From an uncultured archaeon (lineage in GTDB: Archaea; Asgardarchaeota; Lokiarchaeia; Sigyniarchaeales; Promethearchaeaceae): a DNA stretch of 15,058 nt. The position numbers and the translations under genes were made by a program. Below the pieces are notes generated by a model, which was given only the letters and a program-made list of their open reading frames with translations, was not told the origin of the DNA and made no database searches. Shown here one piece after another: positions 172 through 8,319 of this stretch (position 1 is the stretch's first letter; each line of letters begins with the position of its first letter). The DNA is taken from contig CAYRPF010000050.1 of the NCBI GenBank assembly GCA_964426185.1, forward strand, positions 1 through 15,058. The letters run 5' to 3'.

Positions 172-426
172 ATGATGTCTACTGAATTTAGTATTTCTAG
201 TATTTCTATGCAAGTAAAAACTTTAGCAATACCTTGTTCCAGATGTAGACATCTTCAGAAATTGGAATTTTTGGGGAATGATAGAGTATTTATTCAATGT
301 AGATATCAATCTTTGGAAAAGAACATAACTGAAATGATAAAATTGGGCGGTAGATGTGTTAATTATAGTGAGTCGATCGAGAGCCTACAAGGAATTTTAA
401 AATCTGAATGTGAAGAGCATCAATAA
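172..426 (+). CDS. Small hypothetical protein with CxxC...C...C motif (possible Zn/metal-binding)
   Basis: 84-aa ORF with CSRC...IQC...GRC; TATA-like TTATATATAAA at 82-92; ends 2 nt from the convergent gene's stop; true start may be a downstream ATG. Confidence 0.55.
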   Translation: MMSTEFSISSISMQVKTLAIPCSRCRHLQKLEFLGNDRVFIQCRYQSLEKNITEMIKLGGRCVNYSESIESLQGILKSECEEHQ

Positions 427-428
427 AA

Positions 429-1262
429 TCAGTTGTTTTCTTTCAATTTAGAGATTCGGTTTTTGAGATATTTCACATCATTAATTCTTTTAGGGAATTT
501 TAACAAGAAAGCATTTTTATCTCGCTGTATAATATTCAAACAAGTAGTAAGAAGAGAGAGTGTGTGATTTTTTGTAGTAGATTCAGATGAATTTGCTTCC
601 CGCAAAATGTTTAGATAATCATTCAAAGAATAATCGGTTGAGTTCAATACTTCTTCTACCTTACTCGCTTTCATTTCTTCGGCTTTTCTCTCTTCTTCCA
701 CTTTACGTTTTTCTTCCGCTATTCTTTCTTCTTCTCCTTTACGTTTTTCTTCAATTACAAGAAGGAGATTTTCATATTTCTGTATTCGCGAAAGATCATT
801 CAATTCATTTGATTGTTCAAGTAATTCCTGGGCAATGATTTTCTTTTCTGTGGGAGATCTTGAAGAATCGAGGGAATTAAGTTGCTTTTCTAATTCTTCA
901 ATCCGTTTTATCATCAATTTCTGTTTTTTTGCCCAGTTATCCAGCTGTTTTTTATATTCTTCTTCCGAAATTTTTAGATACAGCAAAAATTCTTGAGTTT
1001 GATTTGTAAAACCCTCAATGGTGAAATGTCGTAGAATTGTAATAGAGGGGTTTCTCTTCAAAACTTGCTCTTCGATACGCGGGATCAAGTTTTTCAAATC
1101 GCGCGGAGCTTCTGATCCCACCCATATATACAACCTCTTCACTCGGAATAAATAAAAAGCAATTATATGAACACTTTCAAACACATCTAAGATATTTTTA
1201 GGCTCGATAAGCTTGATTTCTCCACTTTTTAACAACCGATAAATCAGAAATGGACTTTGCAA
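429..1262 (-). CDS. Gelsolin-like domain protein with coiled-coil/charged C-terminal extension
   Basis: N-terminal ~100 aa with gelsolin-fold motifs LYIWVGSEA and IEG..QTQEF; then heptad-rich helices and an E/K/R-rich tract; TTG start preceded by GGAG RBS. Confidence 0.75.
   Translation of the reverse strand: MQSPFLIYRLLKSGEIKLIEPKNILDVFESVHIIAFYLFRVKRLYIWVGSEAPRDLKNLIPRIEEQVLKRNPSITILRHFTIEGFTNQTQEFLLYLKISEEEYKKQLDNWAKKQKLMIKRIEELEKQLNSLDSSRSPTEKKIIAQELLEQSNELNDLSRIQKYENLLLVIEEKRKGEEERIAEEKRKVEEERKAEEMKASKVEEVLNSTDYSLNDYLNILREANSSESTTKNHTLSLLTTCLNIIQRDKNAFLLKFPKRINDVKYLKNRISKLKENN
701..752. repeat. 36-nt-period intragenic direct repeat encoding EEKRKxEEERxA
   Basis: CTTTACGTTTTTCTTC at 701-716 and 737-752. 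Confidence 0.85.
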
Positions 1263-1277
1263 TTCTACGACACTCCT

Positions 1278-4200
1278 TTATTCAGGTGAACTTTCAAAAG
1301 ATAATAAAGACTTTTCTTGGGGTAATAATGGGAGTCTTTGTAAAATGGAGATTAGGTATGATTGAATATTTTCATTGCTACTTCGCATTACATCTAAAGT
1401 GAAAAATGCCAATTTTACTCCGAAATAATCTTCGAGGATTTTTTTAACAAGTCCCAGACTGTTCATAACTTTATCTAATTGAGCTTGAATTTCCGTTAAC
1501 GGCTGTTTATTTTGAATTAAACAAAAAGCGGAAAGCAATATCATTAAACTGGCCGTATTGTAATCATTTCGTCGGGCCATGCGCTTAGAAAGCTTGATAT
1601 ATTTAATAGATGCCTCAGAGTATTTTTTCTGTTCTAATAAATTGAAAATATCCTGATAATAAGTTCGAATCATTTTTTTCCGTTTTTGCATAATAGTTGA
1701 AAAATCATTTGCTAATTCCGAAATGTCTTGCATCAAGACAATGGCTTGTTGATCGAGTAAATTATCTTCATCAGCAGTTCCATCACTTGAAATTGTGGCT
1801 AAATTACTAAATTCTTCAAATTTTTCACTATCATGCTGAAAATGTTGTGATAGCCTAACAAGAAAAGAGATTTCCCAATCGAATAATGGTAGCTTAGATT
1901 GAAATGCAGAAAAGATATCATTTAACATGCGTTCTGCGTTTGGATTATCCCAATACAGTAAAACAAAATCCAATAATTTTACCGGATCACTTGAAAGAAG
2001 TTCTTCATATTGGGTTTTATACTGAAACATAAATTTTTCAAATTCGCGATAAACTTCTTCTTGACTTTTTACCTTCAGAAGAGTTAGAAATCCCATGATT
2101 AAGGAGATAATGGCATACTCCGGATAATTGCGATTGACCATATTAAAAAACTGCTCTAAAAATGAAAGAGAAGCGTCTTCGTAATCTTGCCTGGCAAAAT
2201 GATCTTGACAATCACCCCAATATTTCAGATCAAACATTTTCCGCCTATTTTTCAATTGGACATTGGGAATGATATTTTCTATCAGTAAATTATAGTTTGA
2301 AGGAATAGGATTTTCTGATTTGACTAGAGTTTTTTGATGATCAGTTAACAGACTGGAAAAATCGATATCTTCTCCAATCAAGGTTTCTAAAATTAGTCGT
2401 TCTTCAGGGAATAGTGCAAATACATTGAAAATTTTTAAAGTTTCTCTAATTTTCTCCGAGTTATTATTTTCAATCATTTGTAAAAAATAATCTATTAATT
2501 GGAATGCGAAAGTTTTTTTGAAAATATCGAAATTAATGCGAGGATTTTTTTCAAATCTATGTAAATCGTGCTTTAATGCAGAAATATTGTGGACCAATAA
2601 ATATAGAAAAGTAATTACTGCAAAATTAATCCCAGCTAGTTCAAATTTCTTACTTGCGGCTAATTCTTCGGCAGTTTCAAGATATTTTTCAATGGCTTTA
2701 TAATACTGCTTCTCTCTGAAAAATTGAATCGCTTCATTATAATAACGCCGTTTTAATCCATTTCGCATCCTTAGTAAATTTTCAGAGGCAATTTGCTGGT
2801 CACGCGCTAGAATCTGCAGTTGAGAGAGCATTTCAGAAAACATTTGCGCCTTTTGGGATTGTTGCACTTTTTCTACTTTCGATCGACTTAATTCAGAAAC
2901 AATTTCGTCGATTTTTGCACAGTAAGAATGAGATAATTGATGGGTTTGAATTTTTTCCGCATATTTCCGCGCTTCGCCATATTCTTGTTTGGAAATATAA
3001 TATTTAACTAATTTGACATAAACTGAATCCAGATCGATTGATTCTTCATCTAAATAGCTTTTAGCTGCAAGTTCGATTTTGTTTAGTAGCCCTAATAGAA
3101 AATTAATACCTTTAGAATCAATTTTATAGGCTAATATTTCTGCATACGCAATTAATTTTTTTAAGTATAGAGTGGCTAATTGTGAAGATTCTTCGTATAA
3201 CAAATGATTACGATACAATTGAATAAATTGGACAATATTTCGTTCCGATTTTTCATTTCCTTCTCCAAATTTAATGCGAGAGAAATAATCTTGAATTTGA
3301 GTAAATTTTGATTGCAAGAAAGTCCGGCGCGGTTTTTCAGGTAAATTGAGAACATTTTCAAGAATACGAAATATTTGTTCATTATTTAGGTAAAAGTCTA
3401 AAAGAACCAACCATGCATTCGTGCTAAAAGAAACTTGGCCATATTTTGTGAACCATTTTGCCATTTGGATTATCTTTTTCTCAATTTTTGAGAAATCTTC
3501 TTCATTTAAGGTTCCTTCAGTCAGTTTTTGTAAATTATCAATTCTTTGCTGAAATCTCTCTCGTTCGAAAAGTATATATCCGTCTAAAATTTTTGTTTTA
3601 TTTGTTAGATCTTCGATTTCTCCCTTTCGGATCAATTCTTGTATTTTTTTTTCAGTTTCCATTCGTAAATTCGTTAATTCGATCTGTAACGGAGTACTAT
3701 TTATTTTTGGGATGATTCCTTCAGCTTTAAGAAAATCGCGTTTCTCAATAAACAATTTTGCCATTCTATATAAGAAATCATCAATGTTTTCAGATGGGAT
3801 ATCGTATGTCTCCCAAATATTGGTTAATTCGTCATAAGTTAACCGTGCAGTATTGACATCGTTATTTTCTAAATTTTTCAGCAAAATGCGTTTTAAGATT
3901 TTAACTACTTTTCTCCCTAATACTTGAAGGGATTCAAAAAGGCCAGCTTTTTGATAACGTTGAAAACAAAGATACAATTGAGATTTGGCATATTCATTTT
4001 GATCATTTTCACAAAGATCATCGGCAAGTTGTGCAATTTTTTCCGTGATTTCTTCTAAAACTGCAATCATTCTTGCATGCTCAAATTTATCGAGTAAAGA
4101 AAATGCATTTTGAAGTTCACCTTGAGCAATCCATGCGTTAATCGCTGATTTATAACATGTTTCCATTAAAGAGCTATCATCTAGTTCTAATTTAACCCAA

Positions 4201-5027
4201 TTTCCTGCCATTTCGTATTTTTCTGCAGCTTTTTCATATTCATTTTTGGAAAATAAATCATTTGCTTCTTCTAGAACTGTTTCTATGTATTTACGTTCAA
4301 ATTGTTTATAATAAGGGGGATTAATCTCGCTAATCAAATTAGCTGCTTTTAAAAATTCACCACTTTCAGCATATAAATTGGCTGCTTGTTCAGCCAAAAT
4401 TAAATAATCCAGAGAATCTGATTGTTTCAAATTATTAACTAATCGTTCACATAAGCGGGCTGCTTCAAAGTAATCAGATTGTTGAACTAATTTATTAATC
4501 TGGGAGTAAAAGAGTGATTGTTGAATCCAAGATGTGGCAATATTGATATTTGCCCAACCTGAGATCACAGTTTGACAAAGATTTACTAAATATTCTTTGA
4601 TTAAACCAGTATCTGAATGAGGCGGAATAAAAACACAAGCCGAAGAATGAAACCAGAGCCAATGTAAAATCCCAGATATATCTCCTTTTAAAAGAGGATC
4701 CATAGTTCTAATAACAATAATTATGGGAAAATCTGTGCGTATTTCTTGCAAAAGATTCAAAACTTCTTGCAATTTTTCGAAATTCCCTTTTTGGTTTGGA
4801 TCCAAATAATAGAGTATACCATCTGCCATTTGTAAAGACTCTTTCCCGTGTTCCTCAAAATTTTTGGGAATTATCAAAGAGAGGTCCACATCATCTTCTT
4901 CAATTTTTAGGAAGGTGGAGTACTGGACATCTTGTCCTTCATCTTTACTTGAAAATCCCATATCATTAAATCCTTGCATAGCTGAAAAGATGTCTCCTAA
5001 AACCGCAAAAGTAAGCATAAATTGCAC
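1278..5027 (-). CDS. Large alpha-solenoid (TPR/SNAP-like) protein with N-terminal degenerate Ras/Rab-like domain and three C-terminal ~175-190-aa repeats
   Basis: 1249-aa ORF, GTG start; N-terminal FAVLGD, ADGILYYLD...NFEKL, PIIIVI; helical repeats such as AANLYAESGEFLKAA and AAEKYEMAG; repeated R.....(Y)Y/W and LPL...E motifs. Confidence 0.7.
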   Translation of the reverse strand: MQFMLTFAVLGDIFSAMQGFNDMGFSSKDEGQDVQYSTFLKIEEDDVDLSLIIPKNFEEHGKESLQMADGILYYLDPNQKGNFEKLQEVLNLLQEIRTDFPIIIVIRTMDPLLKGDISGILHWLWFHSSACVFIPPHSDTGLIKEYLVNLCQTVISGWANINIATSWIQQSLFYSQINKLVQQSDYFEAARLCERLVNNLKQSDSLDYLILAEQAANLYAESGEFLKAANLISEINPPYYKQFERKYIETVLEEANDLFSKNEYEKAAEKYEMAGNWVKLELDDSSLMETCYKSAINAWIAQGELQNAFSLLDKFEHARMIAVLEEITEKIAQLADDLCENDQNEYAKSQLYLCFQRYQKAGLFESLQVLGRKVVKILKRILLKNLENNDVNTARLTYDELTNIWETYDIPSENIDDFLYRMAKLFIEKRDFLKAEGIIPKINSTPLQIELTNLRMETEKKIQELIRKGEIEDLTNKTKILDGYILFERERFQQRIDNLQKLTEGTLNEEDFSKIEKKIIQMAKWFTKYGQVSFSTNAWLVLLDFYLNNEQIFRILENVLNLPEKPRRTFLQSKFTQIQDYFSRIKFGEGNEKSERNIVQFIQLYRNHLLYEESSQLATLYLKKLIAYAEILAYKIDSKGINFLLGLLNKIELAAKSYLDEESIDLDSVYVKLVKYYISKQEYGEARKYAEKIQTHQLSHSYCAKIDEIVSELSRSKVEKVQQSQKAQMFSEMLSQLQILARDQQIASENLLRMRNGLKRRYYNEAIQFFREKQYYKAIEKYLETAEELAASKKFELAGINFAVITFLYLLVHNISALKHDLHRFEKNPRINFDIFKKTFAFQLIDYFLQMIENNNSEKIRETLKIFNVFALFPEERLILETLIGEDIDFSSLLTDHQKTLVKSENPIPSNYNLLIENIIPNVQLKNRRKMFDLKYWGDCQDHFARQDYEDASLSFLEQFFNMVNRNYPEYAIISLIMGFLTLLKVKSQEEVYREFEKFMFQYKTQYEELLSSDPVKLLDFVLLYWDNPNAERMLNDIFSAFQSKLPLFDWEISFLVRLSQHFQHDSEKFEEFSNLATISSDGTADEDNLLDQQAIVLMQDISELANDFSTIMQKRKKMIRTYYQDIFNLLEQKKYSEASIKYIKLSKRMARRNDYNTASLMILLSAFCLIQNKQPLTEIQAQLDKVMNSLGLVKKILEDYFGVKLAFFTLDVMRSSNENIQSYLISILQRLPLLPQEKSLLSFESSPE

Positions 5028-5063
5028 TTTTTTTCCTTCCTAATTCTCTATCACTCGTTATTT

Positions 5064-5133
5064 ATAATACTATATTTATTTCTTTATCCCTTAAAGATCT
5101 TTTAGAAATTTTTAATTACCTATAGTACATTAT
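5064..5133. promoter_or_regulatory. Divergent promoter region with dyad-symmetric candidate operator
   Basis: AT-rich gap between divergent genes; palindrome AAAGATCTTT (5093-5102) and inverted pair TACTATA (5068-5074)/TATAGTA (5121-5127). Confidence 0.5.
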
Positions 5134-5140
5134 CTTGATT

Positions 5141-5578
5141 ATGTCTTTTTCTGAAAGAAAAAATCTTGCACAATGTTTTATTGCAGAATTATCTTCTGAA
5201 ATTAAAATCCCACCAAATATTCATGAACATTTAAAACCGTTAGGTAAAAATTTGGTTGCAGTGATTCCAGGTGATTCTAAGAAACTTTCATTTTTCTTAA
5301 CTGATTGTTCTCGAGTTCTATTTGTGAAACTATTACTGGATAAATCTTCTTTAAACGAAAGCTTCTTTACTTCATTGCGAAAAACACTCCAAGAACTTAA
5401 AATGGTAAATCTTTTCTCTACAGGAATTTGCTTTAAAGATGATATCTGTGTGTGGGAAGGTGTTTTTGAGTTTGATGATAATAGTAATCTTTCCATCATT
5501 CGAGAAAAATTATCACATGTAAAACATGTGAATAAAGCCAATTTCGAAGAAATTGAATTAAATAAAGGTTCCAACTAA
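5141..5578 (+). CDS. AbrB-like N-terminus plus ACT-like domain protein (putative regulator)
   Basis: IKIPPNIHEHL resembles AbrB IxIPxxIRExL; C-terminal beta-alpha-beta-beta-alpha-beta pattern ending IREKLSHVKHVNKA is typical of ACT folds; ATG at 5141 preferred over TTG at 5135. Confidence 0.55.
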   Translation: MSFSERKNLAQCFIAELSSEIKIPPNIHEHLKPLGKNLVAVIPGDSKKLSFFLTDCSRVLFVKLLLDKSSLNESFFTSLRKTLQELKMVNLFSTGICFKDDICVWEGVFEFDDNSNLSIIREKLSHVKHVNKANFEEIELNKGSN

Positions 5579-5579
5579 G

Positions 5580-6251
5580 GTGGTTGGGGTCGTGTCATTC
5601 CGAAGAAACTCTGAAGATAAGATATTTTTGCTCCATCCTACTCGAAGGAAAATCTATAAAATAATATGTGAGAATCCGGGCACATATTTTTACCGATTAA
5701 TGCAACATGGGGATGAAGGGATAAGTAGTGCTACTTTACTATATCATCTTTCCAAATTAGAAGAAGATGAACTGATTCACTCCGCAAAAATTGATGGAAA
5801 AAGGATTTACTTTCCCAAAAATCTTCGAGATTTTGAAACTGAGCGCGCTTATATGTTGTTAAAAAATGACAATGCTCGTAAAATATTTCTATATATATTA
5901 AATCATGAAGGGTGCTTTCAAAATGAAATTGCGCGTGAACTTAACATCCATCATGATACTGTGCGCCATCATGTTGCGAAACTGGTTGATTCTGAAATGA
6001 TTGTAAAAGAAAAGGAAGGGCGCCAAATTCACTTCAAAATTGGAAGATTGGGTAAGGAAATATTGAAAGGTTCAATGGTTATCTTCTCGGAGGCGTACAT
6101 TCGTTTTATCATTTCAAAACTTGCTGATGATTGTCACTTTCCAGAAATTGTTGAACGAACAAATGAGCGGATTGTTATTCGAGTGGTCTGCCCCAATGAA
6201 GATGATATTGAATTGAACATTGATATCTCTGGATGGGCAATTGAAGAATAA
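5580..6251 (+). CDS. Tandem winged helix-turn-helix transcriptional regulator (ArsR-like, COG3398-type)
   Basis: Two HTH units: RRKIYKIICENPG...TLLYHLSKLEE and ARKIFLYILNHEG..QNEIARELNIHHDTVRHHVAKL; start may be GTG 5592 (AGGTGG upstream). Confidence 0.85.
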   Translation: MVGVVSFRRNSEDKIFLLHPTRRKIYKIICENPGTYFYRLMQHGDEGISSATLLYHLSKLEEDELIHSAKIDGKRIYFPKNLRDFETERAYMLLKNDNARKIFLYILNHEGCFQNEIARELNIHHDTVRHHVAKLVDSEMIVKEKEGRQIHFKIGRLGKEILKGSMVIFSEAYIRFIISKLADDCHFPEIVERTNERIVIRVVCPNEDDIELNIDISGWAIEE

Positions 6252-6358: not shown

Positions 6359-7069
6359 ATGATAACCGAGGATCTTCGCACCAGAGAATTAACCAATATC
6401 CTTCATGTTTTAGATCGAAACAGTGAGATAGTGCGGGACCACTTGATTAAAAAAATGAAAGAATCCTTAAACATCGGTTCTCGGTTGATAGATAGCGAAT
6501 TGGAAGGGATGGCGGCGGTTTTTCGGCCTATAATAAAATCCTTCTATTCAAATTTAGTGCAAAAAGATTTGGAATACGGAACTATTAAAAGTATTAACGG
6601 AATGATCCGTCTTGCTAAGAAATTAATTAGCGATGGAATAGAACCAAATACTGCTGAATTTGAGCGCAGGTTGGATTTAAAGTTTCCCAGCTATCTTAAA
6701 AATGATCAAACAGGCCGACAATGCAAGCGTTCTCATCCAAATTTTCCACGTTTAAAATCTATTCTTAAAAATACGTTTCGAGCCCAAATTCTGGGAATCT
6801 TACCTTTATTGAAAGTTCAATCTAAAGAGATCTCATATTATGATGAACTTTGTAGAGCTGCGTTTAAAACTGAAGCACGATGTAAAGAAGCTTTACAGAT
6901 GCAGACGCAATCCATGAAAGAAGGATTGAACGTAATTAAAGAAGATTTATCCATTCTGAACATTATAACGGGTAGAGATCTGATTTTCCGTGTGCTCCAG
7001 AAAGGATTTAATAAAAAAATAGATGATTTTAATCGAGAAATTGAATTAATCTTTGCTAGTGAGGCTTAG
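6359..7069 (+). CDS. Hypothetical helical protein
   Basis: 236-aa ATG-started ORF, amphipathic-helix composition, no recognisable motif; 5 nt from next gene. Confidence 0.8.
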   Translation: MITEDLRTRELTNILHVLDRNSEIVRDHLIKKMKESLNIGSRLIDSELEGMAAVFRPIIKSFYSNLVQKDLEYGTIKSINGMIRLAKKLISDGIEPNTAEFERRLDLKFPSYLKNDQTGRQCKRSHPNFPRLKSILKNTFRAQILGILPLLKVQSKEISYYDELCRAAFKTEARCKEALQMQTQSMKEGLNVIKEDLSILNIITGRDLIFRVLQKGFNKKIDDFNREIELIFASEA

Positions 7070-7074
7070 GCTTA

Positions 7075-8319
7075 ATGCCAGCAACAGATAATTTTCGTCA
7101 CCATAACCCCGATGAACCTATAAAAAGGAATCCATTAATTAAAGTCTTTGTATTCTTTGTCGAATTAATGATTGTTTGGCAAGGCTATTATGTCTTTCGG
7201 CTCATTTCCAATCAATTCGAGGTTTTTCTGAATTTTAGTAAAGTTCACCATGGCGTTTTTCTTATGCCTCTTTCATTTTGGTTGGGAGTTCTCTACATTA
7301 TGATACTCTCAAAGTTATTTAACCGTTACATAGTTTTAATCGCAGTAATAAGCGCAGAATGGTTTTTTGAGCAATTTATTTTTGATGTTGTCATTCAGCC
7401 CGTAGTTCTGGGATATTTAGCTTATTTAATTATCATTGAGAGTTTAACTCCATATAAAGGGGGGGATTACTATCAAACGAGTCATTTTTTAAAACAAATT
7501 GGGGTGAAAATTTTATATATTCTCGGTTTTTTACCAATTCTTTATTTTGGATTTATTTTTCAATCTCCGATTCCCTTTTTTTCCTCTGATGGGTTCCAAA
7601 TTCGGTTATATTTGTGTCTTAATTTTCTTTTGAACAATCTTTTTCTTATTATTCCTGCTTGGCTTACCTTTTGGATATTAGATCGAGCATTACAGCCCTG
7701 TTTTCCCCTGGATAAATCTGACAAAGTAATACTTCAAGCACTTCAAGCGGATCAAAAACAGAATAAATATGAAGCGCTCCAAGCTGAAGACACAAATGGA
7801 TCGAGAGATCGGAAATTTTTGGACTTGTACCAGCAAGTTTTACCTCAACCTGGAGAAGTGTATCTTCAAATATTGACTCATCATTCGCTTGAAGATGATG
7901 ATCATACGATTGTTGTCCCTTTAGGAAAAGTGCGGGTTTATTTTTGCACGAGATGTACAGCCATGATATTTGGTGTTATCTTCACTTTCCTACTTTCAAT
8001 GATTTTATTTCATGATTTCAATCTTCCTATTGATACAAATGTAGCTTTTTGGCTGGGAGTCATTCTACCTATTTTTCCGTTATTAGATTGGGGATTGCAG
8101 GCTTTGAAAATTAGAAAAGCGACCACTGCTTCACGATTGATAACCGGGTTTATTCTAGGTGTTTCAATGCAGTTTATTCCCTTTGCAATCGGCGAATCTT
8201 TGTATTACTTACTGGTTGTTGTGGGTTATTTTACTATCTTCTTCTTTTTATATATAATTCGGAGTAAAATGGCTCGAAAAGAAGCTGATGAACAAACACT
8301 ACAAGATTTTGCTAAATAA
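7075..8319 (+). CDS. Multi-pass membrane protein with C-terminal DUF2085-like domain
   Basis: Many hydrophobic segments; THH...HT...FCTRCTA, LLDWGLQ and SRLITGFILG match the DUF2085 pattern (CxRCxG, DxxxQ, RxxTG). Confidence 0.75.
   Translation: MPATDNFRHHNPDEPIKRNPLIKVFVFFVELMIVWQGYYVFRLISNQFEVFLNFSKVHHGVFLMPLSFWLGVLYIMILSKLFNRYIVLIAVISAEWFFEQFIFDVVIQPVVLGYLAYLIIIESLTPYKGGDYYQTSHFLKQIGVKILYILGFLPILYFGFIFQSPIPFFSSDGFQIRLYLCLNFLLNNLFLIIPAWLTFWILDRALQPCFPLDKSDKVILQALQADQKQNKYEALQAEDTNGSRDRKFLDLYQQVLPQPGEVYLQILTHHSLEDDDHTIVVPLGKVRVYFCTRCTAMIFGVIFTFLLSMILFHDFNLPIDTNVAFWLGVILPIFPLLDWGLQALKIRKATTASRLITGFILGVSMQFIPFAIGESLYYLLVVVGYFTIFFFLYIIRSKMARKEADEQTLQDFAK

Follow-up and report, generated by a model that had tools for sequence, protein, structure and literature searches.

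An order-wide Ras-fold scaffold and a 1DGelX-type gelsolin, probably independent genes, stand in tandem in a single Lokiarchaeial genus

The window (15,058 nucleotides), which opens contig C50 of a 3.26 Mb assembly labelled G000 here, comes from a Harpocratesius-type Lokiarchaeial genome and carries two genes, one behind the other on the minus strand, for a scaffold protein of 1249 residues (P0001; 1278..5027, stop included, an open reading frame (ORF) with a GTG start) and a gelsolin protein of 277 residues (P0002; 429..1262, stop included, an ORF with a TTG start). A sequence-only reading of the window had proposed that the two form a candidate operon, a module that couples a scaffold with a Ras-like head to an actin regulator. 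Comparative analysis instead indicates that P0001 and P0002 are likely two independent genes, an order-specific scaffold and a gelsolin of 1DGelX type, that stand in tandem only in the genus Harpocratesius. The tandem order is a local arrangement, and a dedicated two-part system is not supported. What that reading said of the parts holds up well, namely the same-strand order with a 15-nucleotide gap and a GGAG right after the upstream stop, a Ras-like pseudo-GTPase head, a very long helical scaffold and a gelsolin as the smaller protein. The gelsolin falls in a class already described (PMC7444086).

The neighbourhood of the scaffold gene was compared with that in 20 other genomes besides G000; G001 denotes the complete genome of Candidatus Harpocratesius repetitus, from the same genus as G000, and G010 denotes Candidatus Lokiarchaeum ossiferum B-35. 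Only in G000, G001 and G002, and so in 1 of 19 genera, is the scaffold gene followed by a gelsolin gene; these are three of the order's 59 genomes with both types of gene. Within the genus the whole neighbourhood is collinear anyway. The gelsolin-head profile found matches in 59 of 61 genomes, several copies in each, and outside the genus none of these genes was near the scaffold gene. There the downstream slot is taken by a PhzF-type gene (genus g6), a convergent TFIIB gene (family f3), a BAR-like gene (L. ossiferum) or other, unrelated ORFs; a gelsolin domain hidden in the L. ossiferum downstream gene was considered and rejected (hhalign probability 0.1%). Orthologues of P0002 that include its C-terminal domain were found far away, 224 kb from the scaffold gene and between GH57 and ketohexokinase genes in G011, and more than 1 Mb from it and between alpha-amylase and hexapeptide transferase genes in G010. 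The gelsolin-X proteins of G010 have the accessions UYP46565.1 and UYP46866.1. No scaffold-gelsolin fusion was found: scaffold-family members reach at most 1296 residues, and the long gelsolin-X proteins (914, 990 and 1362 residues) gave no Pfam match, the 1362-residue one reaching an hhalign probability below 1% against the scaffold. With orthologous gelsolins elsewhere, no fusions and adjacency limited to the genus, the proposed coupling of scaffold and actin fails on conserved adjacency, the first of the refuting grounds that the sequence-only reading had itself named.

The junction itself has the look of an operon. On the minus strand it runs from the scaffold stop TAA (1280-1278) through a single A, GGAG (1276-1273) and the ten bases TGTCGTAGAA to the TTG (1262-1260), so that the 15-nucleotide spacer (1263..1277) holds a Shine-Dalgarno-like AGGAG and no run of T. 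Both start codons are plausible because the start regions, the "MQF" start of P0001 and the N-terminal strand of P0002, are kept in orthologues. By the yardstick of same strand and short gap the pair qualifies for co-transcription, and P0001 and P0002 are probably co-transcribed in G000, since the gap is short, contains no terminator or anything else able to stop a polymerase, and offers a Shine-Dalgarno-like site able to support re-initiation. G001 also has a gap of 15 nucleotides; that of G002 measures about 86 nucleotides and holds a TATA-like TTTATATAA. A TATA-like TTTATTAT (1308-1301) about 40 nucleotides ahead of the TTG could give P0002 a transcription start of its own. Compact archaeal genomes often place same-strand genes this close, and the spacing on its own says no more than chance. 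Of the candidate operon, then, plausible co-transcription in G000 stands, and conservation of the pair does not go beyond the one genus.

Two further ideas about the junction were dropped. In the region of the scaffold stop (1260-1280, minus strand) the gelsolin start lies in the same frame, with TAA and five sense codons between; a read-through P0001-P0002 fusion was rejected, as ORF coordinates and the junction indicate that the frames shared in G000 differ in G001, and the shared frame looks like a coincidence. A scan for sigma-70 promoters is inapplicable to archaea and returned fewer sites than shuffled sequences.

Several observations weigh against treating the two genes as independent. 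The 15-nucleotide gap and the good Shine-Dalgarno-like site are kept in two of the three genomes of the genus. In L. ossiferum, a gene for a 451-residue BAR-like protein (UYP47554.1; L023:8893-10245, plus strand) immediately follows the scaffold orthologue and shares its strand, so that two different genes for cytoskeleton or membrane remodelling, BAR-like and gelsolin, fill the same slot in two genera, an outcome that we judge unlikely for randomly drawn neighbours. No known function of the scaffold excludes a cytoskeletal role, and both the actin binding of P0002 and the lack of nucleotide binding by P0001 are inferences.

These points give some substance to a genuine module, in which the solenoid would recruit actin or membrane remodellers through a genus-specific operon, with the gelsolin in Harpocratesius and the BAR protein in L. 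ossiferum, and the head would mimic Rab or Ras to dock effectors. Co-immunoprecipitation with Lokiactin in L. ossiferum detected BAR proteins, gelsolins and an Arf GTPase (PMC13716822). In family f3, moreover, a gene for an Arf/Gtr1-RagA-like GTPase of about 410-423 residues is the second gene beyond the scaffold gene, past the convergent TFIIB gene, at all 8 loci with enough sequence (L029:9964-11232, plus strand, with equivalents in L030, L031, L033, L035-L037 and L039). We nevertheless consider such a module rather unlikely. Beyond the lack of fusions and the confinement of the adjacency to one genus, the C-terminal domain of the gelsolin is conserved in family-f1 orthologues that lie far from the scaffold gene. 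The BAR assignment is weak (a FAM92 match at E 5e-4 that misses the cut-off, and the UniRef name of a BAR domain protein), UYP47554.1 is a species-specific paralogue, and BAR homologues elsewhere, including in the sister genome G006, are not beside the scaffold gene, so that a conserved BAR adjacency was rejected. An adjacency of the Arf/Rag-like GTPase was likewise rejected for G000, where the best homologue lies on contig C27. A broader idea, that P0001 is a Lokiarchaeales-specific cytoskeleton-membrane scaffold whose head and super-repeats recruit gelsolin-X proteins, BAR proteins and possibly the family-f3 Arf/Rag-like GTPase, with gene order as a surviving trace, strikes us as unlikely.

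P0002 was modelled with AlphaFold2 (AF2) from an alignment with 15 relatives from the order (predicted local distance difference test, pLDDT, 87). The model begins with a gelsolin-homology domain (residues 1-97; 972..1262, minus strand) with strands at 5-10, 16-19, 33-38, 43-48 and 78-83 and helices at 54-70 and 87-95 (pLDDT 85-94), in keeping with the gelsolin fold, whose central sheet packs on one long and one short helix. Behind it, DSSP assigns helices at 100-130, 137-153 and 157-207, which make up a long coiled-coil-like stretch (residues 100-207; 642..965, minus strand) with an ER/K tract at about 170-204 (651-755). A small helical C-terminal domain follows (residues 213-275; 438..626, minus strand; helices 213-226, 231-247, 249-255 and 262-275; pLDDT about 86-92), and the model contains no second gelsolin repeat.

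Sequence searches say little about P0002. Neither protein gave anything usable when searched directly by sequence against Pfam, NCBIfam and the PDB, P0002 missed the cut-off of the Pfam Gelsolin model (PF00626), and a word-index search with P0002 returned one other cluster only. Structure and family profile agree on a gelsolin. The first Foldseek match in the PDB was the Thorarchaeota ProGel (7c2f_B; E 5e-5, TM 0.71), followed by gelsolin, villin, adseverin and fragmin domains and the Heimdallarchaeota 2DGel, and the top 50 matches were all of the gelsolin family. The family profile of the head (A4) likewise matched ProGel 7c2f_B at E 5.4e-5 and the Loki 2DGel 7whg_G at 0.015, with weak matches to adseverin and villin.

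This architecture identifies P0002, as far as model and profile can tell, as a new member of the described 1DGelX class. In Thor 1DGelX (Akil et al. 2020, PNAS, PMC7444086), as in P0002, one N-terminal gelsolin domain is followed by a coiled-coil extension. That protein binds actin with a dissociation constant (Kd) of 7.7 uM and severs filamentous actin (F-actin) without calcium, its domain X forms a coiled coil, and the class, defined by a lone gelsolin domain joined to such a domain X, has been reported for Lokiarchaeota too (PMC7444086). P0002 differs from its relatives in having only about 17% identity to ProGel, its best structural and profile match, and in escaping the Pfam Gelsolin model. 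It differs from 1DGelX in an extension whose ER/K tract is of very variable length and which ends in a conserved small helical domain, features known here from sequence and model. Its orthologues in G001 and G002 have 628 residues (L021:3095-4978, minus strand) and 775 residues (L022:2584-4908, minus strand), and nearly all of the extra length consists of E/A/R/K repeats of the EARKAE type, while the head and the C-terminal domain are conserved. The spacer thus changes several-fold in length between close species.

A possible calcium site can be compared directly. The ProGel segment FIDHDEKTIYLW before the YxW motif aligns to the family consensus fYvskqkrlyiW, and P0002 has FYLFRVKRLYIW at this place. 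The acidic calcium-site residues are gone, and their replacement fits calcium independence. By analogy with Thor 1DGelX, P0002 may be able to cap or sever filaments independently of calcium. Its head would be expected to dock onto the Lokiactin of this genome in the cleft where other gelsolin domains bind, the ER/K helix would be a variable-length spacer, and the small C-terminal domain would attach the protein to a partner. Actin homologues are encoded in G000 (best E 1.6e-129, Lokiactin included), along with a gelsolin set of one canonical two-domain gelsolin and three to four single-domain proteins of the P0002 type.

The gelsolin fold of P0002 could also serve a role away from actin, as an adaptor between proteins, comparable with the gelsolin-like domains in Sec23/24 or with the Asgard longin-gelsolin proteins. 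The blindness of the Pfam model would fit such a role, as would the change of the acidic DHDEK before the YLW motif of ProGel to basic or hydrophobic residues, and in family f3 the conserved neighbours of this gelsolin type are orphan and TPR-like proteins, not actin genes. We regard an adaptor role as improbable: the closest structures and profiles are those of actin-binding Asgard gelsolins, the architecture equals that of the actin-severing Thor 1DGelX, and the genome encodes Lokiactin.

Gelsolin-X genes have conserved surroundings of their own in family f3. There, a gene for a gelsolin-X protein of 348-352 residues belongs to a conserved same-strand row (L052:3813-11751, minus strand, and 12 similar loci) that comprises orphans of about 530 and about 1120 residues, the gelsolin gene, a weakly TPR-like protein of about 385 residues and a 141-residue protein, none of them related to P0001. 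In G000 itself, a gelsolin-head paralogue of 914 residues (G000:C6:19617-20225; L060:5977-8718, plus strand) is divergent to a gene for a 1487-residue SMC-like ATPase, and G001 has a 916-residue counterpart of this paralogue. A recurrent pairing of gelsolin-X with scaffold-like proteins was considered and rejected, as the large family-f3 neighbours and the SMC-like neighbour on C6 are unrelated to P0001. The window's 702-residue TPR protein was also compared with the TPR protein that accompanies gelsolin genes at other loci, and the relation was not significant.

The larger protein, P0001, belongs to an order-wide family of pseudo-GTPase/solenoid proteins that is undescribed so far. Orthologues of about 1090-1296 residues are present, as a single copy, in 61 of 61 relatives and in all 76 sampled genomes of the order, and searches with the P0001 query found none in 225 other Asgard genomes of the phylum. 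No description of the family was met in the literature searched, and an ESM Atlas search with the scaffold returned its own family only.

Its first 160 residues (4548..5027, minus strand) form a Ras/Rab-fold domain by AF2, Foldseek, and structural and profile comparison. Residues 1-200 were modelled with 20 orthologues in the alignment (pLDDT 88, predicted TM score (pTM) 0.83), and the elements of the model come in precisely the sequence known from small GTPases, b1-a1-b2-b3-a2-b4-a3-b5-a4-b6-a5. At least 500 small-GTPase matches were returned by Foldseek at TM 0.70-0.75, the top ones all from the Ras superfamily (KRas, Rab11, Ypt7, Rap1). An independent all-against-representatives structural search placed Rab23 first at Z 16.5 (root-mean-square deviation (rmsd) 2.6 A over 153 residues), with Sec4, RERGL, the GTPase-like domain of AGAP1 and Gem at Z 16.2. 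Scored against 1.84 billion representatives, the head profile found 61 proteins. The scaffold family accounts for 57 of them; the four at the end of the list are genuine Ras-family proteins (Pfam Ras E down to 1e-48), and their matches cover nearly the full domain at E about 1e-4.

The nucleotide-binding motifs are absent from this fold. None of the 21 orthologues (15-62% identity), aligned to true Ras proteins, has GK[ST], DxxG, NKxD or SAK. At the G1 P-loop position GxxxxGK[ST], P0001 has GDIFSAMQG where the true Ras match has GDAAVGKTS, and its G3, G4 and G5 positions read IIPKN, IRTMD and IPPHS and vary among orthologues. Only the b1 motif "hhhhG[DE]" and the b4 motif "ADG(I/V)" are left. 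Compared with Ras and Rab GTPases (PF00071; Rab23, Sec4, KRas), the head shares the full G-domain topology (Z 15-16.5, 146-157 residues at 2.5-2.9 A), a profile similarity that is weak but significant library-wide, and the conserved b4 ADG(I/V)xxxxD/N; it differs in lacking G1, G3, G4 and G5, in an identity of about 10%, and in being fused to about 1090 residues of helical repeats. On these grounds the head is a predicted pseudo-GTPase. That it might still be an NTPase with a non-canonical site, which would make P0001 a regulated switch-scaffold, is very improbable: the fold is wholly preserved with high confidence and an Asp near the G4 position is kept in many orthologues, but the P-loop Lys and Ser/Thr are missing from every orthologue along with the other three motifs.

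Eukaryotes use pseudo-GTPase domains as interaction modules, as in CENP-M, the pG1/pG2 domains of p190RhoGAP and the GTPase-like domain of AGAP. P0001 resembles these in placing a G fold without nucleotide motifs inside a bigger scaffold, and the GTP-binding-protein-like domain of AGAP1 (7eb6_A) is among the best structural matches of its head. The sequence kinship is only at the level of the superfamily, however, the partner domains are others, and P0001 is archaeal and found in one order only. The head, having lost all nucleotide motifs, would most likely serve as a fixed docking surface.

The remainder of P0001 appears helical throughout and is repetitive. A first repeat region (residues about 161-744; 2796..4547, minus strand) has an internal duplication of about 240 residues (hhalign 341-460 against 581-700, probability 95%). 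It is followed by three tandem super-repeats of about 180 residues (about 745-1249; 1281..2795, minus strand), which hhalign profile self-comparison aligned at probabilities of 98.6% (761-880 against 941-1060), 99.4% (761-880 against 1121-1240) and 97.6% (941-1060 against 1121-1240). In four genera the scaffold is a form of about 1090 residues, and the missing stretch (about 892-1089) equals one repeat unit. P0001 shares its all-helical repeats with tetratricopeptide repeat (TPR)-type alpha-solenoids, and the repeat region of a few orthologues gave weak TPR_2, TPR_12 or TPR_19 matches (TPR_2 in 3 of 21, best E 1e-4); the L. ossiferum orthologue UYP47553.1 carries the UniRef name "Tetratricopeptide repeat protein". 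P0001 itself has no Pfam TPR match at the cut-off; TPR models recognize helix-turn-helix repeats of 34 residues, and the internal repeats confirmed in P0001 are super-repeats with periods of about 180 and 240 residues. The full-length scaffold profile found no match in the PDB. Together, the helical super-repeats could provide a long binding platform of about 1090 residues.

On its upstream side the scaffold gene has neighbours of wider conservation. An A+T-rich divergent intergenic region with TATA-like stretches (5028..5134, unstranded) separates it from plus-strand genes, and beyond lies a divergent pair (6359-8319, plus strand) for an orphan 236-residue protein (6359-7069) and a 414-residue DUF2085 multi-pass membrane protein, 5 nucleotides apart. 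These two are the only scaffold neighbours kept across families f1 and f3, and they are always divergent. The orphan has no Pfam, PDB or ESM Atlas match, and it is often duplicated in family f3. Between the scaffold gene and this pair, genes for a 147-residue protein and a double winged-helix regulator (HVO_0163-type HTH) occupy 5135-6251 (plus strand) in family f1 only. On the other side, an ORF of 84 residues (172-426, plus strand) is convergent with the gelsolin gene; counterparts of 90-91 residues occupy the equivalent position in both G001 and G002, and it has no family match.

Asgard archaea have a regulated actin cytoskeleton for which few regulators are known, as well as many small GTPases and solenoids that have no assigned partners. 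P0002 gives the 1DGelX class a further member, one with a clear spacer-plus-anchor design. Recognizing that its pairing with P0001 is specific to one genus keeps an accident of gene order from being misread as a eukaryote-like link between coat and cytoskeleton. The scaffold is the more unusual of the two, a single-copy protein in every genome of the order searched that belongs to no described family, and its Ras fold stripped of nucleotide motifs is a device well known from the scaffolds of eukaryotes.

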